Origin: a virus
Virus record (IMG/VR): IMGVR_UViG_3300029049_000006
Length of the DNA: 64,000 nucleotides
Strand: one strand, 5' to 3'
Shown here: positions 36,360 to 63,715 of the stretch, piece by piece
Position numbering within the stretch: position 1 is the stretch's first letter
Layout of the letters: each line of letters starts with the position of its first letter
Position numbers and translations under genes: made by a program
Notes under the pieces: generated by a model
The model's input: only the letters and a program-made list of their open reading frames with translations
What the model was told of the DNA's origin: nothing
Database searches by the model: none

Positions 36360-36955
36360 TTGTATTGGTAGGAAATGCCCAGGAATCCGAACACCGGCTT
36401 AAAGACTGCTCCGCTTTTATTGATTCCGGCAAGCCCCGGCTGGTGGTGAGGGTGTCGAAAATGTGCAACTATGATTCCGGAAAAACCGGAACGCGCTGTG
36501 ACTGGGTGTTCCTCAACCCTAATCCCATGTACTGGACCTTTCCGCCAGAGCGCCGCCATTGGAATGTGCTTGCCGGGGCCAGTAAAATCATCATCACCTA
36601 TCCCCCTCCCGGAAGCCTGAAAGAAGGGCCTTGCATTCCTCCGTACTGGCAAAAGGAAGAATACCGGTTTCTGCACCAGCACCCTTTTCTGGAATATTTG
36701 CCGGAGGCGGTGTTCCGGGAAGGGATGGACCGGCGGCTGACGACGTTCGGATTTGCCCTGTGGGTGCTTTCGCGGCGTTTCCCGCATGAGCAGATAGCCC
36801 TGCATGGGTGCATTACCTCGCAGAATGCGTGGCGCCGTGTCCGCTGGTGCCCCTGGCACAATGGCGTTGGCGAGTTTGCCCTGTATGCCAATCTGTCCCG
36901 GAACGGTCGGATTTTCAGGCTGGACGGCGGCGAATTATGCTTTAATGAGGATTGA
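36356..36955 (+). CDS. hypothetical protein
   Basis: 199 aa. Start overlaps the upstream stop (ATGA). N-terminus MIVLVGNAQ is Rossmann-like. Confidence 0.4.
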   Translation: MIVLVGNAQESEHRLKDCSAFIDSGKPRLVVRVSKMCNYDSGKTGTRCDWVFLNPNPMYWTFPPERRHWNVLAGASKIIITYPPPGSLKEGPCIPPYWQKEEYRFLHQHPFLEYLPEAVFREGMDRRLTTFGFALWVLSRRFPHEQIALHGCITSQNAWRRVRWCPWHNGVGEFALYANLSRNGRIFRLDGGELCFNED

Positions 36956-36979
36956 AACCATGCTAAGAATCCATGAGAA

Positions 36980-36996
36980 TTTGCAATCATTGCAAA
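36980..36996. repeat. intergenic palindrome, copy 12
   Basis: Perfect copy between the 36356 gene and ParB-like paralog B. Confidence 0.9.
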
Positions 36997-37017
36997 TTTC
37001 AAAAATCATTTTTACAC

Positions 37018-37860: not shown

Positions 37861-37905
37861 CACAGGCCGCTTTGATTTTTTTACCGCAATAACTTTTCTT
37901 TTTTT

Positions 37906-38769
37906 ATGCTGACGCATTCCGATTTTTGTACGTTTATTTTGTCTCATGGGCGGCCAAATAACATCAGAACTCTGCACCCATTGTTAAACACCGGAAACTA
38001 CAGCGGCCCCTGGTACATCGTCATCGACAATGAGGACCCCACGGCGGAAACCTATTATCAGCTTTACGGCTCCAACCGGGTAATCATGTTTGACAAGGAG
38101 GCCGAAGCCCGCCGTCTGGATATTGCAGATAATTTCATCCACATGAGCCGCAAGACTATTACCTATGCTCGTAATGCCTGTTATGACATTGCCAGAAACT
38201 TAGGCTACACGTATTTTTGGCAACTGGATGACGATTATTGCCGGTTCCGGTACGTAACCGACCAGGCCGGAAAATACGTGTACCACAGCATCCGCCACAT
38301 GGACGAGGCGTTGAACGCGACGCTTGATTATTATAAAAGCGTTCCTTCCCTGACCCTGCTGTCCTGGATGCAGGGCGGGGATTTACTGGGCGGCGCCAAC
38401 AGCCAGTCTTTAACCGTGGTGAAGCGAAAAGCCATGAACAGCTTTATTTGCTCTACCGAGCGCCCCATAAAGTTCCGGGGCCGGATGAATGAGGACGTAA
38501 ACACCTATGTTTCCGAGGGCAACCGGGGAAAACTCATTATGATGGCGAATTGTGCCGGCATTTTACAGACCCCCACCCAGATTAACGACGGAGGAATCAC
38601 GGAACTTTACAGGTCTTGCGGCACTTACACCAAAGCAATGTACACTGTGATGCATATGCCCTCAGTAACTACAGTGGGCATGATGCACAGCACTTTTCCC
38701 CGGATTCACCACACGATAAATTGGAACAACTGCGTTCCGAAAATTATCCGGCAGGAGCTTAAAAAATAG
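37906..38769 (+). CDS. GT-A-fold glycosyltransferase-like protein (DxD), paralog B
   Basis: FCTFILSHGRPNNI. YFWQLDDDYCRF. Collinear with paralog A throughout. Confidence 0.5.
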   Translation: MLTHSDFCTFILSHGRPNNIRTLHPLLNTGNYSGPWYIVIDNEDPTAETYYQLYGSNRVIMFDKEAEARRLDIADNFIHMSRKTITYARNACYDIARNLGYTYFWQLDDDYCRFRYVTDQAGKYVYHSIRHMDEALNATLDYYKSVPSLTLLSWMQGGDLLGGANSQSLTVVKRKAMNSFICSTERPIKFRGRMNEDVNTYVSEGNRGKLIMMANCAGILQTPTQINDGGITELYRSCGTYTKAMYTVMHMPSVTTVGMMHSTFPRIHHTINWNNCVPKIIRQELKK

Positions 38770-45553: not shown

Positions 45554-46123
45554 ATGCCTATGAAAGACAACATCCTAGTGTTATGCCACAGCAACATGCA
45601 CCGCAGCCCGTTCGTTGCGGAATTCATCCGGAACTCCCCCTATGGAGACAGCTATGAAGTCCGCGACGCGGGACTGCACGTTGACAAGGAGCAGCGCGTG
45701 CCCAAATCCCTTCAGCGGGCCTTCCAGACCGTCTCCCAGGGGAGCCTGAAAAGCCACAAGTCGCGCCCGGTGGGAATCAGCGATATTCTGTGGGCGGATA
45801 AAATAATCATCATGGAGCCGGAGAACAAAAACGACCTCCTGCAAATGCTCGGAAGCCTGCACCTCTCCGACAAGCCCCGGTACGACCAGATTGTCTCCAA
45901 AATAATCTCCCTGGCCCAAATCGGCGGGAAGACAGCCGTGGACGACCCTCACCACTACTCCCCCGGAACGATCGAATACGGAAAAGTAGTATTAAACCTC
46001 GCCTGCCTGACAGCCGTCCTTCTGGAAACGTGGGAAGCCCAGCGTTCATTGAGCGGAGGGGAAAAATCCAAAGACCGGAAACCGGACGACGCGGAATCCG
46101 CAGCAGGCCCATTCGGAGCTTGA
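45554..46123 (+). CDS. low-molecular-weight protein tyrosine phosphatase (LMW-PTP/ArsC-like)
   Basis: P-loop ILVLCHSNMHRSPFVAEF gives CX5R(S) (cf. LCLGNICRSPMAE). DPYY-like loop AVDDPHHYSPG. Confidence 0.6.
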   Translation: MPMKDNILVLCHSNMHRSPFVAEFIRNSPYGDSYEVRDAGLHVDKEQRVPKSLQRAFQTVSQGSLKSHKSRPVGISDILWADKIIIMEPENKNDLLQMLGSLHLSDKPRYDQIVSKIISLAQIGGKTAVDDPHHYSPGTIEYGKVVLNLACLTAVLLETWEAQRSLSGGEKSKDRKPDDAESAAGPFGA

Positions 46124-46561: not shown

Positions 46562-47317
46562 ATGCACGCCTATTTGCTCTACACACCGGGGGAAATGCTG
46601 GAAGGCGAAGACGAACTTACCGCACTGGGCTACCATGTCCATCCTTTTCTGGGCAATAATGATACGTCCGGCCTCCGGAACAAAGTCAAACACATTCCCA
46701 GCCTGGGGCATTCCGCGTCTTATTTATCAGACGGACTGGGCTACAACTGGTGCGGCCACGTCCATGCGCTCCGCGCCAACTTTGCAACCATGCTGGAAAC
46801 TTATATGGATGCGGACGACCTCACTATATATGGGGAGTCGGACTGCGTGCCCGCATCTTATCCCCCTGTGTCCGCCGACGATATTTCCTGCGTTTGCCGG
46901 GAAGCGGTTTCCCGGCATCCTGAAATCGGCATTATCCGCCTGTACCGCCGCGCCACAACATTTAACGAGCCTACCTGGCGGAACCATGCGCCCCTTGAGA
47001 TTGTCCCGTTGAAAAAGGCGGCCAGAATCTCCAACATCCCTTTTACGAAATATTACTGTCAAACCCACGCCCTGATTATCCGCAGCCACGTCCGCCAAAC
47101 GGTCATCGACGCCATGCGGGATTACTATTTGCCCATTGACGTGCTCATATCTTATTTGTCCCAGATTGGGACCGTCCCCATGTGGCACACCAGCATCAAT
47201 CTAATGCTTCAACGCCCCCACAGTACGGGAAAGAGGCTGGCGGACTGGCAGCGCAAACATTTTGTTCCGGCAGCGGACTATTGGCGTGACAGGCCCGGAC
47301 TGACTGGAAAAAGGTAG
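46562..47317 (+). CDS. hypothetical protein
   Basis: 251 aa ATG ORF. Follows a repeat-rich non-coding region. Confidence 0.45.
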   Translation: MHAYLLYTPGEMLEGEDELTALGYHVHPFLGNNDTSGLRNKVKHIPSLGHSASYLSDGLGYNWCGHVHALRANFATMLETYMDADDLTIYGESDCVPASYPPVSADDISCVCREAVSRHPEIGIIRLYRRATTFNEPTWRNHAPLEIVPLKKAARISNIPFTKYYCQTHALIIRSHVRQTVIDAMRDYYLPIDVLISYLSQIGTVPMWHTSINLMLQRPHSTGKRLADWQRKHFVPAADYWRDRPGLTGKR

Positions 47318-49022: not shown

Positions 49023-49325
49023 TTATCTGGATGCTGCCGCCGCGCCGATGCCCATCAGGACAACGGCAATAAAGTAGATAAGGGCAATGCCGATGTTGAT
49101 GATAAATATTGCCATTATCATGTTGGATATTTTACTGCACACCCGTATCAGCTGGTCAAGTCTGCTGACAAGAAGATAGGTGTCCTGCGGTTGTAGTCTG
49201 ATGTTAGGTTCCATGTCGTTTATGAGTGGGGGGGGTTGAACTGTGGGTTGTCTGTCCGGCAAACGGTTCGCCGGGGTAGCTCTATGTGCTGGCCGGCGGC
49301 GTTGTTTGTCAACCATATTCCACAT
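49023..49325 (-). CDS. putative membrane protein (minus strand)
   Basis: 100 aa. C-terminal TM IMAIFIINIGIALIYFIAVVLMGIGAAAA. Its 3' end abuts the hairpin at 48977-49003. Sits in a gap between + genes. Confidence 0.35.
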   Translation of the reverse strand: MWNMVDKQRRRPAHRATPANRLPDRQPTVQPPPLINDMEPNIRLQPQDTYLLVSRLDQLIRVCSKISNMIMAIFIINIGIALIYFIAVVLMGIGAAAASR

Positions 49326-49387
49326 TTCTTCCCCCGTATCGGCATGTTTTTTCTTTCTTTTCCGCCCGGAAGCCCTATGTTGGCGGC

Positions 49388-49795
49388 ATGATTAGTCTTC
49401 TCGGCATTTTTGATGCTCCGCCGGATTGGAGCAAGGGCACTATTTATTGTATCGGGCAAAAATCCGATAGTTGGAGCAAGCCCGATTCCTACCGCCTTTC
49501 CGACATCCCGGAACAGCACCGGGAAACGCTCGCGTCTATTGTCAAAGGATTCACTATGTTGAGCGACGAGTGGTACTGCACGCAGTTCTGGGCTGCGTTT
49601 TCCTACCGCATGGAAACAGTGGAATCGGAATCCGGGGAACAGGAATCAACGCGCGTTCCCGGCATTGCCATCCGCATGGAGTGCCGGCATAAGGACACAG
49701 GGGCCTTGAGATTGCTGACCCCTAAAGACAATCCGGCCCTGTGGCTCACCGACAGCGCGTCAATGGCATTGTACTCTGCCCTGTGCGACGATTGA
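49388..49795 (+). CDS. hypothetical protein
   Basis: ATG 49388 (MISLLGIFDAPPDW...). Track ORF from 49286. Confidence 0.4.
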   Translation: MISLLGIFDAPPDWSKGTIYCIGQKSDSWSKPDSYRLSDIPEQHRETLASIVKGFTMLSDEWYCTQFWAAFSYRMETVESESGEQESTRVPGIAIRMECRHKDTGALRLLTPKDNPALWLTDSASMALYSALCDD

Positions 49796-49829: not shown

Positions 49830-49879
49830 TTTTTTTCGCACTCTCATGAGTGCGTGGATTGAAACTGCAACACCAGCCT

Positions 49880-50545
49880 ATGAGCGTTTTTACCTATCCG
49901 GTCGAGGGCCTTCGCCGCGTGCTGATTCCGCAGAAATGCGGCTGGACGCTAGCCTGGGATTCCCTCCCCCGCTGGAACGGTCGGGTGGTGATTGACTCCA
50001 ATGACTACCCCGCGAAAAATCTGGACTGCATGTTTGTCAGGGAGCCGGTGGCCCGGTTCATGTCCGCTTTCCGGAACAAGATAGAGTTCGGGCCGCAGTC
50101 CTACCCCAAAAACGCCAACGGTCAGTTCAACGTCTGGTCCGGCATCCAATGGGTTGCCTGTGTGTGCGGCATCCCCCCGGACCTGGTGCAGAAGCAGGTT
50201 ACTGTGTCCCTGATGCTGGACGTGTTGGAGGACATCATCAAAAAAAAACCGAGGGCGGCGCAATACAACCACGCCGTACTTGACCCGCACTGGTCCCCGC
50301 AGGTCTATCATGTGGCCCCCGGCCATATTCCGGAACTGCTCATTGACCCCCGGAACGATTTTTCCGTCCTGGACAGATTAAAAATTGACTACTCTACGCA
50401 CAATCACAATAATACCAGCCGTTATGGAGGCTACCAGCCTACACCGGAAGAGGTCGCACGCATCAAGGCCCTGTATGCCGAGGATGTAGCACTTTACGCC
50501 AGATACCAGCATGATTACGCCCTTCGCCAGTTACCCGCCCAGTGA
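49880..50545 (+). CDS. sulfotransferase-family protein
   Basis: 5'-PSB-like CMFVREPVARFMSAFRNKI (cf. FVFVRNPWDRLVSAY). C-terminal YGGYQPTPEEVARIKALYAEDVALY resembles the Stf0 / Sulfotransfer_3 tail. ATG 49880 (the track starts at GTG 49850). Confidence 0.55.
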   Translation: MSVFTYPVEGLRRVLIPQKCGWTLAWDSLPRWNGRVVIDSNDYPAKNLDCMFVREPVARFMSAFRNKIEFGPQSYPKNANGQFNVWSGIQWVACVCGIPPDLVQKQVTVSLMLDVLEDIIKKKPRAAQYNHAVLDPHWSPQVYHVAPGHIPELLIDPRNDFSVLDRLKIDYSTHNHNNTSRYGGYQPTPEEVARIKALYAEDVALYARYQHDYALRQLPAQ

Positions 50546-51362
50546 CGCCCCGGAGTTCATCAAATACTCCCACCACCTGATTGACCTCGCCTTGAGAAAA
50601 GCCCGGCGTCCGGCCATCCTCTGTTCCTACGGCAAGGATTCCGGCGTTGTCCTGCATTTGCTCTCCCAGCACGTCGATTTATCCCGCATCGACGTTATTT
50701 ACATTGATTCCACTTTTGAATTCCCGGCGTTTTACAAGCACATTGCCAGGATGAAGGCTTTTTTCGGCATCCGGCACGGCGGCCCTCATGACGTGCGCTG
50801 CCAGAATAACCAGGCCATCCGTTCCGGCATGTCCTACGACAACACCCCGGTGCTCAAGTTGACGCAGACCCTGAAAACCGACGTATTGGTGCAGGTGCTG
50901 AAAGAGCGGAATATTGACTTTCTGTTCACCGGCATCCGGCGCGACGAAGAGGGTTCTCGCGCCAAGGAACGTTATTTTTCCTACCGGGAAGCCGACGGCA
51001 CGTTTGACCCGGTAAGCAACCGCCCCGGATTCTACCCGTTGGATGGGCTGGATGTGCAGTCCCCCGGTTCCGGGCACTATCGCGTCAATATCCTTCTGAG
51101 CTGGTCGGAGCGGGACGTATGGGAGTACACGGAAAAGCACCTGCTTCCTGTCTGCCCGCTGTACCTTGCCAAAAACGGGAAACGCTACCGCTCCCTTGGA
51201 GACGAGCCGGTGACTACTCCGGTGGATTCCGACGCTGACAGTATCGACAAAATCATTAAGGAGCTGTACCATACCAGCGTGCCGGAACGGGCATGCCGGA
51301 AATCACAGGATAATTCCGCGCCGTATGCAATGGAGATGCTGCGGCGCAAGGGATTCTGCTAA
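50511..51362 (+). CDS. cysD: sulfate adenylyltransferase subunit 2-like (CysD/NodP, PAPS-reductase superfamily PP-loop)
   Basis: PP-loop ILCSYGKDSGVVLHLL. LFTGIRRDEEGSRAKERYFSYRE matches the CysD signature GxRRDEEKSRAKERIFSFRD. LSWSERDVWEYTEKHLLPVCPLYL (cf. NWTELDIWQYI..E.IP.VPLYF). Confidence 0.75.
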   Translation: MITPFASYPPSDAPEFIKYSHHLIDLALRKARRPAILCSYGKDSGVVLHLLSQHVDLSRIDVIYIDSTFEFPAFYKHIARMKAFFGIRHGGPHDVRCQNNQAIRSGMSYDNTPVLKLTQTLKTDVLVQVLKERNIDFLFTGIRRDEEGSRAKERYFSYREADGTFDPVSNRPGFYPLDGLDVQSPGSGHYRVNILLSWSERDVWEYTEKHLLPVCPLYLAKNGKRYRSLGDEPVTTPVDSDADSIDKIIKELYHTSVPERACRKSQDNSAPYAMEMLRRKGFC

Positions 51363-51392: not shown

Positions 51393-52115
51393 ATGATACC
51401 GGATGACCCGTTCACCCAGCCGGAAAAAAAACCTGAAAAGCCGGGAGGCATCACGCAAATCTGGATAGGCGGAGAAGATAATATACCGCAGGAAATGCGG
51501 GAATGGATGTCCGGGGTGCGGGCCTACTGTAACCGGTTCGACCTTCCGTACCGCTGCTTGAACGGGAGGCAATGCAAGGCCCTGCTGGATGAGTTCGGCA
51601 TCCCGTTCAACCCTACCGGGGGCATCATGAGCCTGACCGACATGGCGCGGGTGTGCGCCCTGAAAAAATGGGGCGGCTGGTATCTGGACACAGACGTAAA
51701 AATCCAGCGTCCGGCAGCCTTCCATGATTACTCGGTTTCCGTCTGCGAACAGGAGCCTTCTACTGTTTTTTACAATGCCATCACCTACGGCTGGATGTAC
51801 AATCACGGAGTGCTTTACGCTTCCGGGGACGATTCCTGTTTGTTTCTGGATGTCATGCTGGATGCGTGCCGGGAGACGTACAGGACAGTCCATGCTTCCG
51901 ATTCCGGGTGGGGGCTGGAAAGCACCGTTCAAAATATAGTGCATCATGACCGCCAATGGGTAGGCTGGCATCGAGGACTGCCAAAGGGCGTTTGCGATTG
52001 CGGCAATCCGTCCAGCATGATTAACCATGTGCTTTATGGGACCTGGTACAATAGCGCACACATGACTCCCGGCATCAAGGACGCGGAAACTTATTCAAGG
52101 GTTTCCGATTTGTAG
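51393..52115 (+). CDS. glycosyltransferase, GT32-like (Gly_transf_sug, DxD)
   Basis: ITQIWIGGEDNIPQE. KKWGGWYLDTDVK. Matches the conserved QIWIG / GGxYxDxD blocks. Confidence 0.55.
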   Translation: MIPDDPFTQPEKKPEKPGGITQIWIGGEDNIPQEMREWMSGVRAYCNRFDLPYRCLNGRQCKALLDEFGIPFNPTGGIMSLTDMARVCALKKWGGWYLDTDVKIQRPAAFHDYSVSVCEQEPSTVFYNAITYGWMYNHGVLYASGDDSCLFLDVMLDACRETYRTVHASDSGWGLESTVQNIVHHDRQWVGWHRGLPKGVCDCGNPSSMINHVLYGTWYNSAHMTPGIKDAETYSRVSDL

Positions 52116-52164: not shown

Positions 52165-53016
52165 ATGCCACGTGAAAAAATCATCATTGCCGTGTGCGGA
52201 ATCCCTGACACGGGAAAAAGCACCTTTATCGCCAACGCCGCAAAACACCTGAACGGAATGGAGGTCCAACCGGATGCCCTGTGCGTAGAACAGCAGACCG
52301 GGAAAACCATTGCAACCTCATTCATCACCACCTGGGGCGAAGAGTGGCAGCGGGACGGAAAAACCTGCGATTTGGTCTTTGTGGACTGCCCCGGCCATGT
52401 GCAGTTCCTTCCGGAGATTGTCGCGGGCTTGTCTGCGGCCCATGCCTACATTGTCATCCATGACGCTTCCCGCATTGAGGCGAGCCAGGCATATGCCCGG
52501 ATGCTGGAAGATGTCGCAGGCGTGCTTAGCGTGCCTCGGCTCGCCACCCTCTACAGCCATTGCGACAGCACCGGGGAATACTGCTACAACGTAGGTGTTG
52601 ACAACCGGCTTCCGGGAACTGCCGAAAGGGTTATCCGGCGTGCCCTGGCGGGCGGCAAAGATAAGCTGGTCCATCCCACGGCATCCTGGCTTGGCTACAT
52701 CCGGCAGGAGCCGTTCGATACGCCTGATGCCCGGCACAGGGTGTCCGTCATCTGGCTTCCCTGCGCTTCCCGGCTCACTCCGGTTTCCCTTCTCCGGGCG
52801 GAGCTTCCCGACCGAACGGTCGAACTCGGAGAGGCTGGCTCCGTTCTAGACCCCATCCCCAGGGAAAGCGACTTCCAGACCGCCCCATTGATACGGCACA
52901 TTTACCTGCAATTCCCTGTCCGGTATCTGGACCCCGTGCGCTTCCTGATTTGCGACTCGGAGCTGGGAACGGTCGGAGTCGGAACAGTAACCCCGTGGGA
53001 AACCCAAATGTTATGA
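52165..53016 (+). CDS. EF-Tu-like GTPase, CysN/NodQ-like (GTPase domain only)
   Basis: G1 AVCGIPDTGKSTFI (cf. GHVDHGKST). G3 DCPGHVQF. No clear NKxD. 283 aa, shorter than CysN. Confidence 0.45.
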   Translation: MPREKIIIAVCGIPDTGKSTFIANAAKHLNGMEVQPDALCVEQQTGKTIATSFITTWGEEWQRDGKTCDLVFVDCPGHVQFLPEIVAGLSAAHAYIVIHDASRIEASQAYARMLEDVAGVLSVPRLATLYSHCDSTGEYCYNVGVDNRLPGTAERVIRRALAGGKDKLVHPTASWLGYIRQEPFDTPDARHRVSVIWLPCASRLTPVSLLRAELPDRTVELGEAGSVLDPIPRESDFQTAPLIRHIYLQFPVRYLDPVRFLICDSELGTVGVGTVTPWETQML

Positions 53017-53234
53017 GCAACGTAGCCATCCCCTACCGGCCCCACGACTGCCCCGTCTGCGGAAAGAACCTTTGCTACAGCGCCGGAAAGGACGGCTGCT
53101 ATTATTCCTGCCCGGAATGCAGGTATTCCGTCCAGTCCGGTGCGACCCTGCAAGAAGCACAAAGGCATCTTTTCATTTTTACGGCGGCAGTCCTCAAAAA
53201 TCAGAACACGCAACACGACACCATCATCCAATGA
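53013..53234 (+). CDS. small zinc-ribbon protein
   Basis: CPVCGKNLCYSAGKDGCYYSCPEC. ATG 53013 overlapping the upstream stop. Confidence 0.35.
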   Translation: MSNVAIPYRPHDCPVCGKNLCYSAGKDGCYYSCPECRYSVQSGATLQEAQRHLFIFTAAVLKNQNTQHDTIIQ

Positions 53235-53734
53235 TTATTCTTCTCACCGGCGAAAGCGGCGTAGGAAAAACGTCTGTGGCAAAAACCCTGATGAACCGGC
53301 ATCCAGGCATCCTTCTCGACGGCGATGACATGCGGGACGGATTGAACAGCGACCTCGGATTTTCCGACCGGGACATCATGGAGAACATGCGCCGGGCGGC
53401 GCACATAGCCGTACTGCTGCATGACCAGCTTCCGGAAGACCGGCGCACGGTTTACATCACCTGCATTGCCCCGCTGCTGGCCGGAAGGAATCTGGTGCAT
53501 GAGCTGTGCGGTTCCCGGTTGTGGGAGATCCGCATCCAGTATGATTACCGGGCCTCCGACGACGTAAAAGGATTGTACAAGGCGGGAACCCCCATGCGGG
53601 CCTACGAAGAGTACCCCAGCGAAACGTTGCTGCTCCCCCGCCGGATAAACCGCGTATATCGGTACTACAACGATACCGTGTGCGCTCTGGCCGCCAAAAT
53701 AGAAAAGCTGTGGCCCACAGACAAAACCGCTTGA
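53231..53734 (+). CDS. cysC: adenylylsulfate (APS) kinase
   Basis: P-loop LTGESGVGKTSVA. LDGDDMRDGLNSDLGFSDRDIMENMRRAAHIAVLL matches CysC [34 protein letters not shown] (cf. FISP). Confidence 0.8.
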   Translation: MIILLTGESGVGKTSVAKTLMNRHPGILLDGDDMRDGLNSDLGFSDRDIMENMRRAAHIAVLLHDQLPEDRRTVYITCIAPLLAGRNLVHELCGSRLWEIRIQYDYRASDDVKGLYKAGTPMRAYEEYPSETLLLPRRINRVYRYYNDTVCALAAKIEKLWPTDKTA

Positions 53735-57079: not shown

Positions 57080-57123
57080 CCCTGAATACAATGGACAAAG
57101 AAAATTGCAAACTGGAAACAAAG

Positions 57124-57441: not shown

Positions 57442-57545
57442 AAAGCGGGTCTCAAGAAGAACAACAATAGGCCGCCCGTGGTTAAGTCTGTTTGACTAGT
57501 CACGGGCGGTCTTTTATATTGGAGGCCGCATATAACCTCCGCAAC

Positions 57546-58562
57546 ATGACCAATACCGCCAGCGCCCCCAAGATTGCCGCCCTGATGTCGTCCTACAAGC
57601 GCCCGAACGACCTTGTGAAACAGATTCTGGCCCTGCTCCACCAGACCTACGACTGCCATATTTTCGTTGCCGTGAAGGGCCTGTCCGAACGGGACATAGA
57701 CACCTGCATCCGCCCGCTTTTCGCCAAAGAGATTGAGGCCGGAAAGCTCCATCTGGCGTACTATTCTAACAAGAGCCAGTTCAACAACATTCTTGACTGC
57801 TACCGGGGCTTTGACATCGAGCAGTTTGACTTGTATTGCAAAATTGACGACGACGACATCTATTTTCCGACTTACCTTGAGGACGTAGCCAAGGCCGCCG
57901 CCAGCACCAGAAAGACGAACGGGGACTACTGCGGTTCCTGGTTTTCCGGGGGCCAGTGCCTGATTGCCCAAAAGTCGAACCAGAACGGAGTATTCTTTGA
58001 CCGGGTTCCGGCAAACAATTTCAACATGTTTGGAAATACCCTCTGCATGTCGCGGGAGGATATGCGGCAACTTTACGCTATTGAGGCTGACCCGTCCCTG
58101 CTCACCCCGGAACGCTACCCGTTCATGAATTCGTGGCATGTGGTGCTGGCCGGATTTGTCGAAGACGCGCTGATTCACCGCATCATCCAGGCTAACGGGG
58201 GCGTCAACCGCTATGACGTGCTGGCGGCAGGCAATCCGGATTCCTCCGTGCGTCCGCAACTCATCACTACCGGCTACGGTTCGAGCGTCACCAGAGGCGG
58301 CTTGTACCAAAACGAGTTCTATCAGAAAAACGCCCGCCTCGGACAGTTGGAACAGGAATGGACCGTGTGCCTGTATCATCCGGACTGGGGCGGCAGGAAC
58401 TACAGGACATTCCGCCTGTTCAACGGCAGGGCCACCGATTTGCACAACATTGACCATGCCGGCTACAAGGAATTTGACGGCAATACGCTGGTGCTTAAAT
58501 GGGACAAATGGGGCACGGAAACTTTCGTCAAAAACTCCGAAGGCGTTTACTGCTTGAAATAG
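57546..58562 (+). CDS. GT-A-fold glycosyltransferase-like protein (GT2-like)
   Basis: IAALMSSYKRPNDLVKQILALLHQT (cf. GT2 vsviiPtyNrpe.L...L.Sl..Qt). DxD CKIDDDDIYF. ATG 57546 in track ORF 57492-58562. Confidence 0.5.
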   Translation: MTNTASAPKIAALMSSYKRPNDLVKQILALLHQTYDCHIFVAVKGLSERDIDTCIRPLFAKEIEAGKLHLAYYSNKSQFNNILDCYRGFDIEQFDLYCKIDDDDIYFPTYLEDVAKAAASTRKTNGDYCGSWFSGGQCLIAQKSNQNGVFFDRVPANNFNMFGNTLCMSREDMRQLYAIEADPSLLTPERYPFMNSWHVVLAGFVEDALIHRIIQANGGVNRYDVLAAGNPDSSVRPQLITTGYGSSVTRGGLYQNEFYQKNARLGQLEQEWTVCLYHPDWGGRNYRTFRLFNGRATDLHNIDHAGYKEFDGNTLVLKWDKWGTETFVKNSEGVYCLK

Positions 58563-58643
58563 AATGGAGATGCAAACCATTGTTTTTCTTGTCCGGCCTG
58601 TCTCCGGCGGTATAGTCAAGCGTAAGAACAGCTTTATTTTTTC

Positions 58644-60032
58644 ATGAGATTTCTTCCCTCTCTTTTCAGGCGGAAAGGCCACGAACAGCGGTTGTCCGTA
58701 GCATGGAACAGTCTGGATTCCCGCCAACGGTCGGTCCTCATGGAACTCGCGTCCTATCTCGGCAACGGCATTGACGGGGACCGGACAAACCTCCGGTATA
58801 TCGACCTGGTGAACCATGTCCGGGTGGACCCCCTGGACAGCTATGAAAAGTACATCAAAACAGGGACCGGCCAGGTATGGGCTACGTTTGTAGCCTGCAA
58901 TCTGGTGGCTAATGTTTTGGTGTCAACTACGTTCCAGGTTGTCAAATCCGGCTCCGATACGCCCCTTGACAGCACGCGCCACCCGCTGGCAAAGCTAATC
59001 GCGCAGCCGAATGAGTGGGACTCGTGGGAGGATTTAATCTATCAGTGGGTATTCCACATCAAACTGACCGGCAACGCGTACTGGCTGAAAAACCAAGTCA
59101 ACGGGTACGGGCAGCCCCTGGAACTGATTCCCCTGCTTCCGCAGTACGTCAAAATCATCCCTGACCAGACTTCCAGAATCAAGGAATACCAATACCAGGT
59201 CAATGGCCTGTGCATTACATACGCTCCGGAAGAAATTATCCATTTCCGGAGGCCCCACCCCAATTCCTTCATCCTTGGTCTGGGAGATATTGAGCCGTCA
59301 AAGTCATTGTATGAATCCTTTATTACCGGGGACGAGCTTCAAAAGCGGGTGTACTCCAATGGGGCCGTCATCAGCGGCGTATTGAGCAATGATTCCGATT
59401 TGCTCTCACAGGAGGAATTTGACCATGCCGTGGAGAGCTTCCGCTCCAAATACGAGGGGAAGAAAAACGCGGGAAAAACGGCGTTCCTTTCCGGCAAATG
59501 GAGCTATACCCGGCTCGGAATGACCAACAGCGAGCTTCAAAGCCTTGAGCGGGATAAGACCAGCGTTGAGCAGATATTCATCAATCACGGGGTTCCCCTT
59601 TCCGTTGCGGGCATTAAGGACGCCGCCAACTACGCCACATCCAAACAGGACGCTATCGCGTTCCGGAAACAGGCATGCCTTCCGCTGGCCGATATTCTTG
59701 TAGGCAAATTGAACTCGGAAAAAGGGCTGACACCCGCCTACCGGGATAAAACCCTGAAAATCGACTATAACATGTCTGGCCTCGTGGACATTGAGCAGAT
59801 GGTGAAGGAAAACCAGCCGTTGCTGGAATCCGGGGCGCTTACCCCGAACGAACTCCGGGAAAAGTGCGGCCTGTCCAGAGTTGACGACCCTTATCTTGAC
59901 CAGTATTTCATCAAATCGAATCTGGTTCCTATGGAACTGTCCGGGATGGGTATGGGAGAGTCGCTGGAAGAAAGCGCCCGAACGGTCGTGACCGGATTCA
60001 CCAAATCTCGTTGCGGCGGCCACCCGCATTGA
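58644..60032 (+). CDS. portal protein
   Basis: 462 aa. Position between the chaperonin and head-morphogenesis genes. Composition and size typical of HK97/SPP1-type portals. Motif-level support is weak. Confidence 0.55.
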   Translation: MRFLPSLFRRKGHEQRLSVAWNSLDSRQRSVLMELASYLGNGIDGDRTNLRYIDLVNHVRVDPLDSYEKYIKTGTGQVWATFVACNLVANVLVSTTFQVVKSGSDTPLDSTRHPLAKLIAQPNEWDSWEDLIYQWVFHIKLTGNAYWLKNQVNGYGQPLELIPLLPQYVKIIPDQTSRIKEYQYQVNGLCITYAPEEIIHFRRPHPNSFILGLGDIEPSKSLYESFITGDELQKRVYSNGAVISGVLSNDSDLLSQEEFDHAVESFRSKYEGKKNAGKTAFLSGKWSYTRLGMTNSELQSLERDKTSVEQIFINHGVPLSVAGIKDAANYATSKQDAIAFRKQACLPLADILVGKLNSEKGLTPAYRDKTLKIDYNMSGLVDIEQMVKENQPLLESGALTPNELREKCGLSRVDDPYLDQYFIKSNLVPMELSGMGMGESLEESARTVVTGFTKSRCGGHPH

Positions 60033-60049
60033 ACGCGCGTCGTGAACTT

Positions 60050-60694
60050 ATGGATTGGGAAACGACAATAAAAACCCTGCGGATGGCCGTGGACTGCATT
60101 GGCCCCACCATCACCGCCCTTGGGGCCATTGCCCTTTTTTTCAAGCGGGTGCGGAAGTACCTTTATCTGGTATTCATTCACAAGCCGGAAATGGACAGGA
60201 GGCTTTACGATAAAGTAGCCGAAATCCTGAATCGGATAGGAAAGATTGAATCCGAACTCCGTCTCAATGACGACTCCACCGTCAAGGATGCCGTTGCCCG
60301 GCTGGAAGCCTACAGGCGTTATTCCGCGACCAACTCCATGTCCCTGATTTTCGAGCTGGATAAAACCGGGAACATTGTGCTGGTCACGGACGCTTTATGC
60401 CAGCTGGTGGAAACGGTCAGGGCCGAAGACCTGAAAGGGCAGAACTGGCGGCAATTCGTCTATATCGAAGACGAACCCAGAGTGACGGCCAACCTGTGCA
60501 CCGCTGTGAAAACAGGCTCGTCCACCCGGACGAAAGTCCGCGTCATCAACAGCAACAACATATCCAGAGGCGACTGGTATGTCCGGCTTAATGCCGTTAC
60601 CCGGCCTGACAACTCCGTCATCATGTATATCGGGCTTTTGTACCCGGCTGACGAACTGGCCACCAGCATCTACACGGAAAACAACTGGAAATAG
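60050..60694 (+). CDS. hypothetical protein with N-terminal TM segment
   Basis: ATG 60050. TITALGAIALFF hydrophobic helix. Confidence 0.4.
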   Translation: MDWETTIKTLRMAVDCIGPTITALGAIALFFKRVRKYLYLVFIHKPEMDRRLYDKVAEILNRIGKIESELRLNDDSTVKDAVARLEAYRRYSATNSMSLIFELDKTGNIVLVTDALCQLVETVRAEDLKGQNWRQFVYIEDEPRVTANLCTAVKTGSSTRTKVRVINSNNISRGDWYVRLNAVTRPDNSVIMYIGLLYPADELATSIYTENNWK

Positions 60695-60717
60695 CGTTTT
60701 TTCCGTGGTATTGAAAA

Positions 60718-60734
60718 TTTGCAATCATTGCAAA
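60718..60734. repeat. intergenic palindrome, copy 19
   Basis: Perfect copy upstream of the Mu-F-like gene. Confidence 0.9.
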
Positions 60735-60744
60735 AATACCCGCC

Positions 60745-62985
60745 ATGCCGCCCATACGCACCGCAACGTTCAGAAAAGCTTCCCCGGCCCTGCTTTTTAA
60801 ATCCTACCGGCAATCCAAGGTTCCGGAAGGCGGCTGGACGCAGGAAAGCTTTTACACGGAAAACGGCGTTCGGCTGGTGCAGGACTGGGTGAAAATGAAC
60901 CGCTCTGCGACGACAAAAAACGCGAGAATGCTTGCCCGGACGCTGAAAGCCCTGATTGAAAAAATACTCTACGAGATTGCCGACCGCATGGAAGGCATTG
61001 CGGAGTTGTCCGAAAAGAAGCACCCGCACACGTACCAGCGAAAAACTACCGTGTTATCCGGAGTATGGGGCAACATCATCAATGAAGTCCTGCACGATTT
61101 TTCCGGGGACGTGCAAGAGGCCGTCCAGCCCTACATGCAAAGCACGGCTGATGACGTTGTGGACAAGGGGCGGCAACTGCTTGGGTCAACTGTGAACAGG
61201 ACGGACACCACAACAATTAACAATTCCGTGCGTCAGGCCGCCAGGGAGATAACCAGCGTGCCGAACACCATCCGGGACCGGATTAACCGCATCATCCAGC
61301 GTGAGCATGACAAGGGGTCCTCGGTGTTCGACACGATTGCCGCCGTGCGCCGACAAACCCCCTCATTGGCCGCTGGCCGCATTGCCACAATCGTCCGCAC
61401 CGAACTTGGACGGGCTGCGGACATTGCCAATATTCAGGCGGCTATGGAAGGGACCTGCACGCACATGTCGGTTATCGGGTGTGAAACCATTGAACGCACC
61501 TACACCTACCGGGGCCTGCCGACGTGCAATATCCAAAACGTTCCCATCAACGAATGCATGAACGTCCGGTTCCATCCGAACCATACCGGGTGCTGGGTTC
61601 CTTCGGCATTCAGACAGTCGGACGGTTCAACCCCGGAACTGGACCCCCGCAGCAATTCCGGCCACGGGACTTTTGAGGAACAGCGGGAAAACCCGGAAGG
61701 GAACAGCGCCCCGTTCCTGAATCCAAGACCGGCCCCCGGCCCGGAAATGGAAAACCCGGTAACATTGGCTCCCACGCCGGAACCGCCCCCGGCCCCTATA
61801 GACATTCTTCCCCAGGGGTCATTGTCGCCAGTGCTGCCGACCACTCCGGAAAACTGCGGTGCGCCGGTTATCGGAAGGCCGCTTCCGTCTGGGAAGCCGC
61901 CTAAAAATGTGCTTGATTTTGACACGCTTCCGGCGACCTACCAGGACACAGAAGAAGTGCGCAATGCCGTCAGGGTGATTCGCAATCACGCCAGTTCCGC
62001 GACAAGGTTTAACGCGAATGATGAGGACATTTACAACTTTTTCCGAACGGTCGGAGTTCTCCCGGATGCTATGGAATCCCTCTTGTTGCAGGACATCCCC
62101 ATCAATCTGGCGGACACCACCGAACTGGTCATCCGCGCAGGACGCACCTTTGACTGCATTGGAAGCGTAGGCGGAAAGCAGTCATTTTTGTACCGGCGCA
62201 CCATATGCGTGGATGAACAGGGCAAATTGTACATCCACCACAACAGCTTTGAATTGTGGGCGCAATATCAGGGGAACGGGTACGCGAGAAAACTGCTGCA
62301 AAACCAGATTAACTTTTACGACGCTATCGGGGCCGAATATATCACACTGGCGGCCAACATTGACGTTGGAGCCTACGCGTGGGCCAGATACGGATTTTAC
62401 CTGACTGGCAGCGGCGCGGAAATGCTGACAAGGCAGCTGAAACGGAACTGGAACAGGATAATCACCAAAGACCTTGCCCCGGCCAACCCGTCAGACCGGG
62501 AAGCGTTCGATGCGTCGGTAGTCCGGCTGGAACGGATTGTAAACAAAGACCCGATGGATTCCAAAGACCTTTGGGCCATTGCGTCCGAACAGGTCAAAGT
62601 GCGTACCCCCGGAGGCCAGGAACGGAAACTGGGCTATCATGTGCTGACCGGAACCTTCTACGATGCCCAGCTGGATTTGAACAATCCGGAACAGTACGCG
62701 CGGCTGGTGTCGTACATCAGCCACAATCCTACGATTACCAAGGGGCGGGAGCTGTACTCCCTTGTTGACGGGCATCAGCAGGATGCCATGCTTCATGCGG
62801 AGTTCCTTTCCAGCGTATGGGGGAATTTCCGTGCCGACTTTGCCGGGGTGGAACAGGCCATACGTTCCGGATGCCCGGAAGACGAGGCGTTGTGGCTTTA
62901 TGCGTCCCCGGAATCCGTGGCGCTCATGGCCCCGCAACTGCCGCAGGAATTGTACACCCGCTATCTGGCCCTTCTAAACCGATGA
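60745..62985 (+). CDS. Mu-F/SPP1-gp7-like head morphogenesis protein with C-terminal GNAT-like domain
   Basis: AAGRIATIVRTELGRAADIANIQA matches the Mu-F motif (RAxxIARTExxRA). C-terminal QGNGYARKLL (GNAT motif A Q/RxxGxG/A) and NIDVGAYAWARYGF (motif B). Confidence 0.55.
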   Translation: MPPIRTATFRKASPALLFKSYRQSKVPEGGWTQESFYTENGVRLVQDWVKMNRSATTKNARMLARTLKALIEKILYEIADRMEGIAELSEKKHPHTYQRKTTVLSGVWGNIINEVLHDFSGDVQEAVQPYMQSTADDVVDKGRQLLGSTVNRTDTTTINNSVRQAAREITSVPNTIRDRINRIIQREHDKGSSVFDTIAAVRRQTPSLAAGRIATIVRTELGRAADIANIQAAMEGTCTHMSVIGCETIERTYTYRGLPTCNIQNVPINECMNVRFHPNHTGCWVPSAFRQSDGSTPELDPRSNSGHGTFEEQRENPEGNSAPFLNPRPAPGPEMENPVTLAPTPEPPPAPIDILPQGSLSPVLPTTPENCGAPVIGRPLPSGKPPKNVLDFDTLPATYQDTEEVRNAVRVIRNHASSATRFNANDEDIYNFFRTVGVLPDAMESLLLQDIPINLADTTELVIRAGRTFDCIGSVGGKQSFLYRRTICVDEQGKLYIHHNSFELWAQYQGNGYARKLLQNQINFYDAIGAEYITLAANIDVGAYAWARYGFYLTGSGAEMLTRQLKRNWNRIITKDLAPANPSDREAFDASVVRLERIVNKDPMDSKDLWAIASEQVKVRTPGGQERKLGYHVLTGTFYDAQLDLNNPEQYARLVSYISHNPTITKGRELYSLVDGHQQDAMLHAEFLSSVWGNFRADFAGVEQAIRSGCPEDEALWLYASPESVALMAPQLPQELYTRYLALLNR

Positions 62986-63698
62986 ACTTTGTCTGGCTCA
63001 ACAACCAATTCGGCAACCAGATATGGCAGATTGCCGTGGCGACGTTTTTTTTTGGAAGGGGGAACTTTGCCGCGATAACCTCCTATGCCGTGCCGCTGAA
63101 AGGAATTGGCTTCCACGCATTTCTGCACGTGCCCTGTTTTCCGTTCAACCGGGAGACAAGCGCCCTCGCCCCGCAAACGGTTTACGTCAAAAGAGGGGTT
63201 CCCATTCCTCGCGGCACAAACTCCATCAGTGACGGGCAGTTGCAGGACGTAGCCTATTTGCGTAATCTGGATGCCCGCCAGTTATTGACGTTTGACGGCA
63301 TTGACAACGATTTCCGCATTGTCCATGTCCGGGGCGGCGATTTTTTTACCAGCAAGCCGCACAGGCCCTACGTCAAAAACCGGGACTGGTATCTTAAAGC
63401 CATTGACGCTGTGCCCGATATGCGGAAGCACCGGGACAAAACAGTATTGCTTACAAACGACAAAAAATACGCGGGGAAAATCCTTCCCGAATTTCCCATA
63501 CTGGACGTGCCGCCCTTGACTGCGTTCCGGCTGATGATGGGCTGTCGCTCTCTGGTTATATCCGCGTCATCCTTTGGCTGGTGGGCCGGGTATCTGAATC
63601 CGTCAGCGCAGATTGCCGCTCCTTCCCGGTGGTGCGGCGCCGGAGAGGATTCGGCGAAATATTACGGGCATAGCCGCTTGATGTTCATACCTGATTAA
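62982..63698 (+). CDS. glycosyltransferase, GT11 (alpha-1,2-fucosyltransferase)-like
   Basis: N-terminal LNNQFGNQIWQIAVA (cf. GGLGNQMFQYA). C-terminal SSFGWWAGYLNP (cf. STFSWWAAYL). ATG 62982 overlaps the upstream stop. Confidence 0.5.
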   Translation: MNFVWLNNQFGNQIWQIAVATFFFGRGNFAAITSYAVPLKGIGFHAFLHVPCFPFNRETSALAPQTVYVKRGVPIPRGTNSISDGQLQDVAYLRNLDARQLLTFDGIDNDFRIVHVRGGDFFTSKPHRPYVKNRDWYLKAIDAVPDMRKHRDKTVLLTNDKKYAGKILPEFPILDVPPLTAFRLMMGCRSLVISASSFGWWAGYLNPSAQIAAPSRWCGAGEDSAKYYGHSRLMFIPD

Positions 63699-63715
63699 CC
63701 CGGCAGACCGGCAAA

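Follow-up and report, generated by a model that had tools for sequence, protein, structure and literature searches.

Glycosyltransferase genes scattered among the structural genes of a human-gut phage mirror a single Akkermansia operon and may serve to glycosylate a virion protein

Introduction

Glycosyltransferases (GTs) that act in the cytoplasm on dedicated protein acceptors are exemplified by those of the Gram-positive serine-rich-repeat adhesins, on which GtfA/B and accessory GTs build an O-glycan stepwise. GT-A enzymes include well-known toxins whose substrates are host proteins, and the GT11, GT25 and GT32 families and CMP-sugar synthetases are classic families of LOS, LPS and capsule synthesis. 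Mycobacteriophages encode, within the structural region, GTs that act on capsid and tail-tube proteins (Freeman et al., 2023, as summarised in PMC11600133), and in Moumouvirus (M. australiensis) SAT/APS-kinase and sulfotransferase genes lie inside the fibril-glycosylation cluster (PMC10117803). Phage DNA is also a target of sugar hypermodification, for which multi-sugar products are known (bioRxiv 10.1101/2023.12.21.572611; PMC13229309; PMC13326640); the placement of ParB and TAGT genes beside a terminase gene is a context of the DNA-modification type (PMC13229309; bioRxiv 10.1101/2023.12.21.572611).

The DNA analysed here (the window) is 64,000 nucleotides of IMG/VR record IMGVR_UViG_3300029049_000006, which belongs to a common ~88 kb human-gut tailed phage. 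Two of its genes, encoding a GT-A-fold enzyme and a GT11-family enzyme, together with five other window genes, are a scattered copy of one glycan-assembly toolkit. The new observation is that this dispersed toolkit mirrors a single Akkermansia operon and, in part, loci of jumbo phages; the papers searched contained no description of an Akkermansia GT operon associated with a poly-Ser RHS protein.

Results

Six GT-like genes lie within the window (a TAGT pair, a GT25-like and a GT32-like gene, the GT-A gene at 57546-58562 and the GT11 gene at 62982-63698), which agrees with the earlier note's count of at least six, and two GT25 genes just outside it bring the total to eight. The phage also encodes a CMP-sugar (sialic-acid-type) synthetase, a PAPS pathway with a sulfotransferase, and an LMW-PTP. 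These genes are spread over more than 40 kb, and with eight GTs plus sugar activation and sulfation the description of a dispersed and unusually large investment holds. All toolkit genes fall within the structural/late half of the genome, and the claimed interleaving with portal and head genes is borne out by the order GroES, GT-A, portal, 214-aa ORF, MuF-like protein, GT11, S78 protease, capsid. GroES (Cpn10; Pfam 2.8e-12) lies upstream of the GT-A gene, the portal gene (58644..60032, +) matches Pfam at 8.6e-53, and the 746-aa MuF-like protein (60745..62985, +; phrog_2468, 1.1e-10) has a head-morphogenesis N-terminus, a Pro/Thr/Ser-rich linker at aa ~338-367 and then a C-terminal domain of no assigned family. 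The six window GTs probably do not form one pathway, because the TAGT pair has a DNA-modification-type context.

The GT-A gene (57546..58562, +) encodes 338 aa and the GT11 gene (62982..63698, +) 238 aa, as independent gene callers found on six 80-90 kb contigs. The GT-A sequence itself has no Pfam or PHROG match; PF00535 (GT2) matches 6 of 20 homologues (best 8.3e-7), and the best PDB match of the family profile is SpsA (E=0.003). A DXD motif is present, and the family alignment shows K-I-DDDD, SYKRP and ED without variation. The AF2 model (pLDDT 76) comprises a catalytic domain and a ~70-aa C-terminal beta domain; its top PDB matches in Foldseek are GT-A structures only (GfsA, GalNAc-Ts, K4CP, SpsA, TarP; E ~1e-5), and its named top matches in BFVD are mostly viral glycosyltransferases. 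The label GT2-like thus stands as to fold, motifs and GT2 homologues and lacks a direct HMM family assignment. An identical protein is found on 152 contigs, and comparison with most sister contigs gives 13 synonymous changes to 1 non-synonymous (portal, 18:0), a pattern that indicates purifying selection comparable to that on the portal gene; GC and GC3 match core genes. Non-coding spacers flank the gene on both sides in a moron-like layout, with a terminator-like hairpin and T-run between GroES and the GT-A gene (57470..57515, +) that is weak evidence, since such sites are no more numerous in the region than expected by chance. The gene encodes an intact, conserved, soluble glycosyltransferase with a GT-A/GT2-like fold.

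The GT11 gene, with its start codon overlapping the MuF-like stop codon, is alpha-1,2-fucosyltransferase-like, as proposed earlier: it matches Glyco_transf_11 (PF01531) at 5.9e-10 and 39.3 bits (cutoff 23.9 bits) over profile positions 163-269 of 298, matches PHROG 2644 'glycosyltransferase' at 2.6e-13, and carries both signature motifs, HVRGGD and SSFGWWAGYL. The earlier note had staked both GT genes on a family assignment, and a GT family was found for this one directly. It encodes an intact, conserved, soluble GT11-family enzyme that is more variable among strains than the GT-A protein; it is not essential, because some strains have a version shortened to 164-177 aa.

A 251-aa protein (46562..47317, +) is assigned a GT25-like GT-A fold from tblastn, AF2 (pLDDT 79, pTM 0.79) and Foldseek, in which Mimivirus R655 is the top match and COLGALT1, LH3 and a bacterial beta-1,4-GalT also match; COLGALT1 and LH3 are protein-glycosylating GT25 enzymes. 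Its homologue in Akkermansia and jumbo phages is the N-terminal domain of two-domain GTs (tblastn 1e-17 to 1e-23), to whose C-terminal half the 57546-58562 protein corresponds; a two-domain gene is therefore split in this phage, its halves 10 kb apart. The 240-aa product of 51393..52115 (+), which lies between the CysD-like and CysN-like genes, is GT32-like by motifs, as the earlier note had it: its Gly_transf_sug match (1.4e-4, 22.9 bits) is just below the 23.0 cutoff, and I(T/H)QIW (IHQIW in the phage) and GGWYLDTD (GGxYxDxD) are conserved with distant homologues.

The sugar-activation, sulfation and phosphatase genes named earlier were likewise found. The 318-aa product of 35403..36359 (+) has no Pfam match of its own; it matches a jumbo-phage CTP_transf_3 protein (blastp 6e-17), and its family profile matches CMP-Neu5Ac synthetases (1qwj, 1.4e-13; 1eyr, 3e-12) and, more weakly, KdsB, as expected of a CMP-nonulosonate/Kdo-type cytidylyltransferase-like protein. 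The adjacent 199-aa ORF (36356..36955, +) is homologous to the part of the fused Akkermansia and jumbo-phage proteins that comes after their cytidylyltransferase domain. Two small ORFs of 132 aa (34910..35308, +) and 169 aa (49286..49795, +) have homologues just upstream of one Akkermansia operon (L045; tblastn 2e-5 and 9e-8). A sulfotransferase (49850..50545, +) matches Sulfotransfer_2 over a short stretch only (7.6e-7, 29.9 bits; cutoff 22); it is followed by a PAPS_reduct-family protein (50511..51362, +; 6.3e-30), which its neighbouring genes suggest is sulfate adenylyltransferase subunit 2 (CysD-like), by an EF-Tu-type GTPase domain (52165..53016, +; GTP_EFTU 3.8e-12), CysN-like by context, and by an APS kinase (CysC-like; 53072..53734, +; 6.6e-19). 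The LMWPc gene (45554..46123, +; 1.4e-6) directly follows a tail-fibre-like gene (43112-45517). Hydropathy gave no TM-like segment in any toolkit enzyme.

The genes scattered in the phage, namely GT-A, GT11, GT25-like, the CMP-synthetase pair and the two small ORFs, have counterparts in one Akkermansia operon, in which homologues of GT11, the fused N-domain plus GT-A, and CMP-synthetase plus its partner segment are adjacent; in a jumbo phage (L009/L010) GT11, CMP-synthetase and the two-domain GT lie within 9 kb. The 57546-58562 and 62982-63698 genes are thus members of a scattered toolkit, not isolated morons. The operon has further domains (GT4, GT31/GT32, GT10, pyruvyl-transferase), and its GT4, the likely priming enzyme, has no phage homologue. 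In at least six loci it has a Ser-rich neighbour: an RHS-repeat protein of ~2000 aa follows it in L007, L026, L034, L039 and L045, and in L029 a contig-truncated poly-Ser ORF does. The proteins of L026, L029, L034 and L039 have poly-Ser runs of 40-92 residues, those of L007 and L045 shorter or interrupted Ser-rich tracts. No poly-Ser protein was found in the DNA examined around four fused-gene operons (L022, L030, L032, L036) or the jumbo phages. If, as is possible, the Akkermansia loci are orthologues of one another, they represent only one or two independent associations.

In the phage, the tail protein encoded after the tape measure has three poly-Ser tracts (e.g., 26 Ser, Gly, 5 Ser), for which a mixture of Ser codons is used, and shares nothing in sequence with the RHS proteins beyond poly-Ser. 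Its gene, ~20 kb from the GT-A and GT11 genes, is followed immediately by the two GT25 genes (PF01755) just upstream of the window.

The pair of genes first described as GT-A paralogs does encode GTs, though of the TET-associated TAGT family (PF20691), each paired with a ParB-like gene. The two cassettes (32773..34796, +, ParB_N 3.2e-6 and TAGT 1e-27; 36973..38769, +, 4e-7 and 4.7e-31) are paralogues (ParB 48%, TAGT 54% identical), and the former is directly 3' of the large terminase gene. The cassette recurs in 27 of 32 distant viral loci, as well as in phi jlb1 and HHTV-2. No toolkit gene accompanies it in 32 other viral loci, and none of the Akkermansia and jumbo-phage toolkit loci examined has TAGT, so among these the two co-occur only in this phage. 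The cassettes are probably a separate, DNA-directed module. Lying between them is the CMP-synthetase pair (35403-36955), a position that leaves room for a link to DNA, a point against virion glycosylation.

Discussion

We favour cytoplasmic O-glycosylation of a virion protein, probably with a fucosylated and sulfated glycan, at a probability of roughly 0.45. A virion-protein acceptor is preferred because toolkit homologues adjoin poly-Ser proteins in Akkermansia; the tail poly-Ser gene with its GT25 neighbours, the placement of the toolkit in the late half and the lack of TM segments in its enzymes point the same way. Late in infection, the enzymes would build an O-linked oligosaccharide in the cytoplasm on a phage structural protein, with the three poly-Ser tracts of the tail protein as the prime acceptor candidate and the MuF-like protein as a possible secondary one. 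The GT32-like enzyme, the two outside GT25 enzymes and the sulfotransferase with its own PAPS supply (CysD/N-like, APS kinase) may work with the toolkit. The product would probably contain fucose and hexose, and possibly a CMP-activated acidic-sugar cap and sulfate, these donor sugars being deduced from family names only; the ParB-TAGT cassettes by the terminase would form a separate module, probably acting on DNA. Speculatively, such a coat would alter the encounter of the virion tail with mucus, the host surface or antibodies. The poly-Ser tracts could also be mere flexible linkers typical of the host lineage.

It is unlikely that the sugars are instead destined for DNA, with TAGT adding the first one to a modified base and the GT-A, GT11, GT25-like and GT32-like enzymes lengthening the chain to a possibly sulfated oligosaccharide that protects the genome against host nucleases. 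Precedent exists: among the TAGT enzymes is the T6-type one, by which DNA receives its second glucose (PMC13390438); 5hmC can carry mono- to tri-saccharides made by phage GTs (bioRxiv 10.1101/2023.12.21.572611); and GTs, ParB and terminases accompany 5mYOX pathways, a ParB being the activator of a DNA dioxygenase (PMC13229309). The two strong PF20691 genes, each with a ParB-like gene, beside the terminase fit this precedent, and the toolkit CMP-synthetase pair between them makes a DNA link possible. However, outside ~9 kb of structural region downstream of the capsid gene and one stretch of ~1-2 kb, neither the scanned ORFs of the window nor precomputed Pfam matches of the flanks included a TET/JBP, a thymidylate-synthase homologue or a C5-methyltransferase; toolkit and TAGT occur together in no other locus examined; and the neighbours of the toolkit in Akkermansia are poly-Ser proteins, not DNA enzymes.

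Remodelling of the host envelope, the other purpose raised by the earlier note, also appears improbable. Lipid-linked or LPS-core intermediates would be hijacked and Akkermansia surface glycans altered during infection, for receptor masking, phage exclusion or a change in the output of capsule, whose regulation the LMW phosphatase would affect. The LMWPc gene, the polysaccharide pyruvyl transferase in the homologous Akkermansia operon and the LOS/LPS/capsule character of the phage GT11, GT25, GT32-like and CMP-synthetase families are in keeping with it, but Pfam scans and hydropathy revealed no flippase, polymerase, GtrA/B-type or multi-pass membrane protein, and adjacency to poly-Ser indicates a protein acceptor. 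Late surface change would moreover be of little benefit, because the genome looks virulent (own PolA, DnaB and RecA; no integrase or lysogeny module seen). Doubtful, too, is another cytoplasmic target, whether a small molecule, a non-structural phage protein or a host protein (e.g., a translation or defence factor that is thereby inactivated), the poly-Ser association then being coincidental. In jumbo phages the toolkit does have RNA-polymerase and nucleotide-metabolism genes in its vicinity and no poly-Ser protein, and host proteins are the substrates of GT-A toxins; yet a multi-enzyme kit with activation and sulfation far exceeds a single inactivating modification, and the genes sit in structural modules.

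Comparison with Known Systems

The phage resembles DNA sugar-hypermodification systems (T-even glucosylation; 5mYOX/ThyS and GT clusters; bioRxiv 10.1101/2023.12.21.572611; PMC13229309; PMC13326640) in its TAGT GTs with ParB-like partners by the terminase, but no enzyme making a hydroxyl-bearing base is detectable in it, and the GT-A and GT11 genes are outside the TAGT family and never accompany it elsewhere. With serine-rich-repeat adhesin systems it shares a Ser-rich protein gene beside several dedicated cytoplasmic GTs; it lacks the GtfA/GtfB pair and the accessory Sec system, its tracts are homopolymeric Ser and not SRR repeats, and lineage and enzyme families differ. In mycobacteriophages (Che8/Corndog type; Freeman et al., 2023, as cited in PMC11600133), cytoplasmic GTs encoded among or beside structural genes act on capsid or tail proteins, whereas this phage has eight GTs of other families (GT11, GT25, GT32-like, unassigned GT-A, TAGT), supplements them with a CMP-sugar synthetase, a sulfotransferase and a complete PAPS pathway, has its genes scattered over more than 40 kb and a poly-Ser tail protein as acceptor candidate, and its glycosylation is a prediction. 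The fibril clusters of Megavirinae (PMC10117803) similarly combine sugar activation, several GTs and predicted sulfation for a virion-surface glycan, and the GT25-like protein has its top structural match in Mimivirus R655; the giant viruses of eukaryotes, however, have a single compact cluster, whereas the phage is an 88 kb tailed virus with dispersed genes.

The Akkermansia operon differs in being one unit, often fused into multi-domain proteins of 750-1076 aa, in having GT4, GT10, GT31, pyruvyl-transferase and methyltransferase domains absent from the phage, and in having no sulfation genes and an RHS toxin-type protein as acceptor candidate. It nevertheless holds direct homologues (~25-35% identity) of the phage GT-A, GT25-like domain, GT11, CMP-synthetase and partner segment, has the C-terminal beta domain of ~70 aa in common with the phage, and adjoins a poly-Ser protein gene.

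Glycosyltransferase Complement of the Window

At least six glycosyltransferases are encoded in the window, as the earlier note had counted: two TET-associated glycosyltransferases (TAGT, PF20691), a GT32-like, a GT25-like, a GT-A and a GT11 enzyme. The genes previously described as two GT-A paralogs are the TAGT genes 33861–34796 and 37906–38769 (1e-27 and 4.7e-31). The gene described as GT32 (51393–52115) is borderline by Pfam, with IHQIW and GGxYxDxD motifs that are common to its few homologues: a search of 1.84 billion representatives gave only seven distant proteins, 31–36% identical in alignments of about 90 residues. For the sixth gene, 46562–47317, the structural model (pLDDT 79, pTM 0.79) resembles GT25-type GT-A enzymes, including COLGALT1, LH3, Mimivirus R655 and a bacterial β-1,4-GalT; a sequence search of its N-domain family against the PDB gave no match. 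Two more GT25 genes (PF01755) lie just upstream of the window.

The CMP-sugar synthetase gene 35403–36359 has no Pfam match of its own; its family profile matches CMP-Neu5Ac synthetases at 1e-13 and, less strongly, KdsB. Sulfation genes are represented by Sulfotransfer_2, a PAPS_reduct-family protein, an EF-Tu-type GTPase and APS kinase, which by family and adjacency probably correspond to CysD/CysN/CysC and a carbohydrate sulfotransferase. Lineages of A. muciniphila differ in whether they carry sulfate adenylyltransferase genes (PMC8920140), and a private supply of PAPS makes sense if the host often has none. Glycan-related genes occupy 9.6 kb of the window, and about 13% of the phage genome is given to eight glycosyltransferases, sugar activation and the private sulfate-activation pathway. 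Recent transfer of the glycosyltransferase genes was rejected, as their GC and GC3 match those of core genes. An LMW phosphatase-family gene (45554–46123) directly follows the tail-fibre-like gene and precedes the GT25-like gene; its candidate roles include action on a capsule-regulating kinase, an arsenate-reductase-like activity, or another function.

The GT-A and GT11 Genes

The AF2 model of the 338-aa GT-A protein (57546–58562; pLDDT 76) has only GT-A glycosyltransferases as its top Foldseek matches in the PDB (prob 1.0, E about 1e-5), and its named top matches in BFVD are mostly viral glycosyltransferases. The DXD motif reads K-I-D-D-D-D, with D101–D103 invariant over 20 homologues; SYKRP, K-x-DDD and ED are invariant in the family. 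These homologues are two-domain proteins of 500–560 aa, and the best PDB match of the family profile is SpsA. Because the protein itself matches no Pfam or PHROG family and only 6 of the 20 homologues match GT2 (PF00535), it should be labelled "GT-A fold, GT2-like, family unassigned"; the GT2-like description proposed previously holds for fold, DXD motif and homologues but not for a direct profile match to the GT2 family. The gene is under purifying selection (13 synonymous changes, 1 non-synonymous) and is flanked by non-coding spacers, with a terminator-like hairpin after GroES. Its C-terminal module (58353–58562, aa 270–338) is a beta-rich unit of ~70 aa. The same module is present on a number of distinct enzymes in the Akkermansia operons described below (L036:10032-12941 and others), twice in tandem on one of them, and may serve them in common for docking or for binding the acceptor.

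The GT11-like assignment of 62982–63698 is upheld by Pfam, by a PHROG glycosyltransferase family and by motifs. The match to PF01531 passes the curated threshold (39.3 bits, E = 5.9e-10; cutoff 23.9) and spans only profile positions 163–269 of 298; an Akkermansia homologue scores 66.6 bits. The translation contains HVRGGDF and SSFGWWAGYL, counted here as instances of the two GT11 signatures, HxRRGDY and (S/T)FSWW(A/G)xxL. CAZy GT11/PF01531 is a family of α-1,2-fucosyltransferases; the predicted donor and product of 62982–63698 would be GDP-fucose and an α-1,2 linkage. At 238 aa the protein compares with ~280–300 aa for the family, and no profile covers its first ~105 residues. The ATG of the gene and the stop codon of the preceding MuF-like gene overlap. 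GT11 is more labile than GT-A: sister strains carry in-frame indels, and some strains have a GT11 gene of only 164–177 aa (L097:10001-10495 in a related phage contig, and P0024, P0027, P0028) together with a MuF-like gene shortened to 665 aa; in L097, GT-A keeps its 338 aa. Homologue searches with the GT11 gene recovered only close relatives (≥75% identity).

Genome Context and Relatives

Every substantial ORF of the window lies on the + strand. A replication block at 1–17 kb (Pfam: RepO-like, DnaB, PolA, RNase H, helicase, RecA, RuvC) is followed by the large terminase (31146–32636), a tail-fibre-like gene (43112–45517) and, from 57 kb, a head block of GroES, portal and MuF-like head-morphogenesis protein identified by Pfam and PHROG; an S78 protease and the capsid gene come next in sister contigs. 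The GroES (Cpn10) homologue, 57019–57441, is phage-encoded, and the GT-A and portal genes come directly after it. Between portal and MuF, a small ORF (60011–60694) has weak PAS-domain matches (2.9e-4, below cutoff) and one hydrophobic segment, which is unusual in a head module. The stretch 18000–30000 consists of small unannotated ORFs with lower GC (0.43–0.50, vs. 0.52–0.56 elsewhere) and contains an N6 adenine methyltransferase gene (21086–21889; PF02384, 3.4e-11); the 28–30 kb segment has marked GC and AT skew. Unannotated ORFs of the window include 7125–8393, 11270–12295, 26247–27314 and 39152–42999. No tRNAs were found in the window.

The phage is common in human-gut-type assemblies: an identical 338-aa GT-A protein is encoded on 152 contigs, the longest of them 90.6 kb, and gene order is the same across six contigs of 80–90 kb. 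Strains differ in some core genes: one contig encodes PolA in two parts of 553 and 373 aa (L015:12819-15646), and the length of an AAA protein is 557 aa in one contig but 832 aa elsewhere (L014-L016:5594-8093). No cultured relative was detected among 50,697 phage records by blastn of 57000–64000 or tblastn of GT-A; the portal is at most 27.5% identical to that of any cultured phage, and a literature search for an Akkermansia phage of this type returned nothing specific.

Counterparts of the Dispersed Genes Form an Operon in Akkermansia

When one genome per species was scanned, full-length homologues of GT-A (30–35% identity) were found almost exclusively in Akkermansia, a distribution that points to Akkermansia as the probable host. 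In these loci, genes that are scattered in the phage have their counterparts next to one another within a single operon: GT11, a gene in which the GT25-like and GT-A domains are joined, and a fusion of the CMP-synthetase with a homologue of 36356–36955. One operon (L045) additionally contains counterparts of the small ORFs 34910–35308 and 49286–49795. Further operon domains include GT4, GT31/GT32, a GT10 fucosyltransferase (as GT10-CMP-synthetase), a pyruvyl-transferase and a methyltransferase. A serine recombinase often lies upstream, which suggests that the operon is mobile cargo. A jumbo phage carries part of the same set (GT11, CTP_transf_3 and a two-domain glycosyltransferase) within 9 kb. 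The two-domain enzyme is fused in both the Akkermansia and the jumbo phage loci; it has therefore been split by the phage into two genes 10 kb apart. By this comparison of gene content, the dispersed phage genes are one kit. No specific description of an operon that joins glycosyltransferases to poly-Ser RHS proteins of the kind described next was found in the literature searched.

A Candidate Protein Acceptor

In at least six of the Akkermansia-type loci a large Ser-rich protein immediately follows the operon (L026:11917-18264, L034:5874-11762, L039:8969-15355, L045:12039-17951, L029:9915-12386 and L007:11735-17731). The ~2000-aa proteins of L007 and L026 match the Pfam RHS-repeat profile, and those of L034, L039 and L045 cluster with that of L026; in L029 a contig-truncated poly-Ser ORF occupies the same position. 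Uninterrupted runs of 40–92 Ser residues occur in L026, L029, L034 and L039, and the Ser-rich tracts of L007 and L045 are shorter or interrupted.

The phage has a tail protein (L096:8711-10762, about 8 kb upstream of position 1 of the window) with three poly-Ser tracts between globular segments; its gene comes after those for the tape measure and a 284-aa protein. Strains differ in the length of this tail protein (683, 801, and 824 aa); one tract consists of 26 Ser, Gly and 5 Ser, with mixed Ser codons. Directly after it come the two GT25 genes (L096:11234-13418), then lipoprotein-like and lysozyme-like genes. Beyond poly-Ser it has no homology to the RHS proteins, and no collagen-like repeats were found. 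The 746-aa MuF-like protein encoded next to GT11 (60745–62985) has a MuF-like N-terminus, a Pro/Thr/Ser-rich linker and a ~350-aa C-terminal domain, a layout that resembles MuF proteins with cargo domains. That C-terminal domain contains, by eye, an acetyltransferase-like motif (YQGNGYARKLL) and has no sequence match in the PDB.

The kit genes all lie in the late/structural half of the genome, and the order GroES, GT-A, portal, then MuF, GT11 places glycosyltransferase genes amid structural genes, as in phage virion-glycosylation systems. No TM-like segment was seen in any glyco-enzyme.

TAGT Cassettes

Each TAGT gene follows a ParB_N gene with which its coding region overlaps or nearly abuts, forming two cassettes (32773–34796 and 36973–38769, + strand). 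The cassettes are paralogous (48 and 54% identity), and the CMP-synthetase pair lies between them. Such ParB_N-TAGT cassettes are widespread beside the terminases of unrelated phages, including an archaeal virus (L017, L018, L062-L093): they were found in 27 of 32 distant IMG/VR loci and adjoin the terminase gene of Lactobacillus phage phi jlb1 and that of Haloarcula virus HHTV-2; E. coli siphophages are among the further phages with TAGT homologues. In T6-like phages the substrates of TAGT-family enzymes are sugars carried on DNA (PMC13390438), and phage DNA dioxygenases are activated by ParB-like proteins (PMC13229309), so a natural guess, by analogy, is that the cassettes would target DNA. 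The features of a DNA-type glycosyltransferase (TAGT, or the α/β-GT type) were found in 33861–34796 and 37906–38769 and not in GT-A or GT11. This putatively DNA-directed sub-module was not foreseen in the earlier note.

An enzyme that would prepare an acceptor base was sought by Pfam on about 70 window ORFs and PHROGs on 20, and in the precomputed annotation of the flanks, save ~9 kb of structural region beyond the capsid gene and a gap of ~1–2 kb. In the parts scanned, Pfam gave no match to 5mYOX/TET-JBP (PF12851), a ThyS-type hydroxymethylase/hydroxylase or a C5-methyltransferase, and neither PHROGs nor phmmer searches of the PDB with three large unannotated ORFs (>340 aa) and one TAGT returned a dioxygenase, ThyS homologue or C5-methyltransferase; the only methylase was the N6 adenine type at 21086–21889. 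A very divergent enzyme may still be encoded. Clustered neighbours of the 32 distant TAGT genes comprised ParB, terminase, and proteins judged by eye to be DUF1376-, exonuclease-, phosphatase- and SAM-methyltransferase-like, with no candidate dioxygenase family among them. None of the 32 TAGT loci contained kit genes, and none of the Akkermansia-type or jumbo-phage kit loci contained TAGT.

Discussion

The earlier note had offered virion glycosylation or remodelling of the host surface as purposes for these genes. The poly-Ser tracts adjacent to glycosyltransferase genes in phage and bacterium, the Pro/Thr/Ser-rich linker of the MuF-like protein, the late/structural position of the kit and the lack of membrane segments favour cytoplasmic O-glycosylation of a virion protein, with the poly-Ser tracts as candidate acceptor. 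Remodelling of the host surface fares poorly: Pfam searches of the window found no flippase, polymerase or Gtr-type seroconversion cassette (no GtrA, GtrB, Gtr(type) or Wzx/Wzy-like protein). The earlier proposal is partly supported, with virion glycosylation as its best reading. If the TAGT cassettes do act on DNA, the kit might extend a DNA glycan; this is unlikely, as an acceptor-base enzyme was not detectable in the scanned parts and cassette and kit never travel together outside this phage. Because of these same two observations, kit and cassettes are treated here, on gene content, as two systems. ParB-TAGT cassettes are widespread, and at none of the loci compared are these "TET-associated" transferases accompanied by a recognisable TET/JBP, ThyS or C5-methyltransferase gene.

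With virion O-glycosylation as the favoured reading, the phage, as far as its genes can be read, brings together eight glycosyltransferases, an activating enzyme of nonulosonate type and a complete route to sulfation within one genome of 88 kb, tied to a poly-Ser-linked Akkermansia operon. A more specific picture, which we regard as a long shot, is that the poly-Ser tracts of the tail would be coated with a mucin-like O-glycan that bears fucose, galactose and sulfate and ends in an acidic nonulosonate cap, made by the kit shared with Akkermansia and the phage's own PAPS. The virion would then mimic host mucin and could settle in the mucus layer and evade antibodies; alternatively, Akkermansia, its probable host, could take it for "food" and capture it with its mucin-foraging machinery, a Trojan-horse adsorption. 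Such a coat would also mean that the RHS proteins of Akkermansia are substrates of a poly-Ser O-glycosylation system not described before. To our knowledge, a few actinobacteriophages are the only phages for which glycosylation of proteins by phage-encoded enzymes has been demonstrated, and virus-encoded sulfated glycans have so far been only predicted, in giant viruses. If the product is on the virion, it bears on the persistence of gut phages in mucus, on immune evasion and on the finding of mucin-degrading hosts; a second lead is the putative, undescribed poly-serine glycosylation operon itself, in a bacterium of medical interest.

Giant-virus fibril clusters include SAT/APS kinase and sulfotransferase genes (PMC10117803). 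Mycobacteriophages provide the precedent for glycosylation of virion proteins (Freeman et al., 2023, as cited in PMC11600133); the system proposed here would likewise be one of virion-protein glycosylation.
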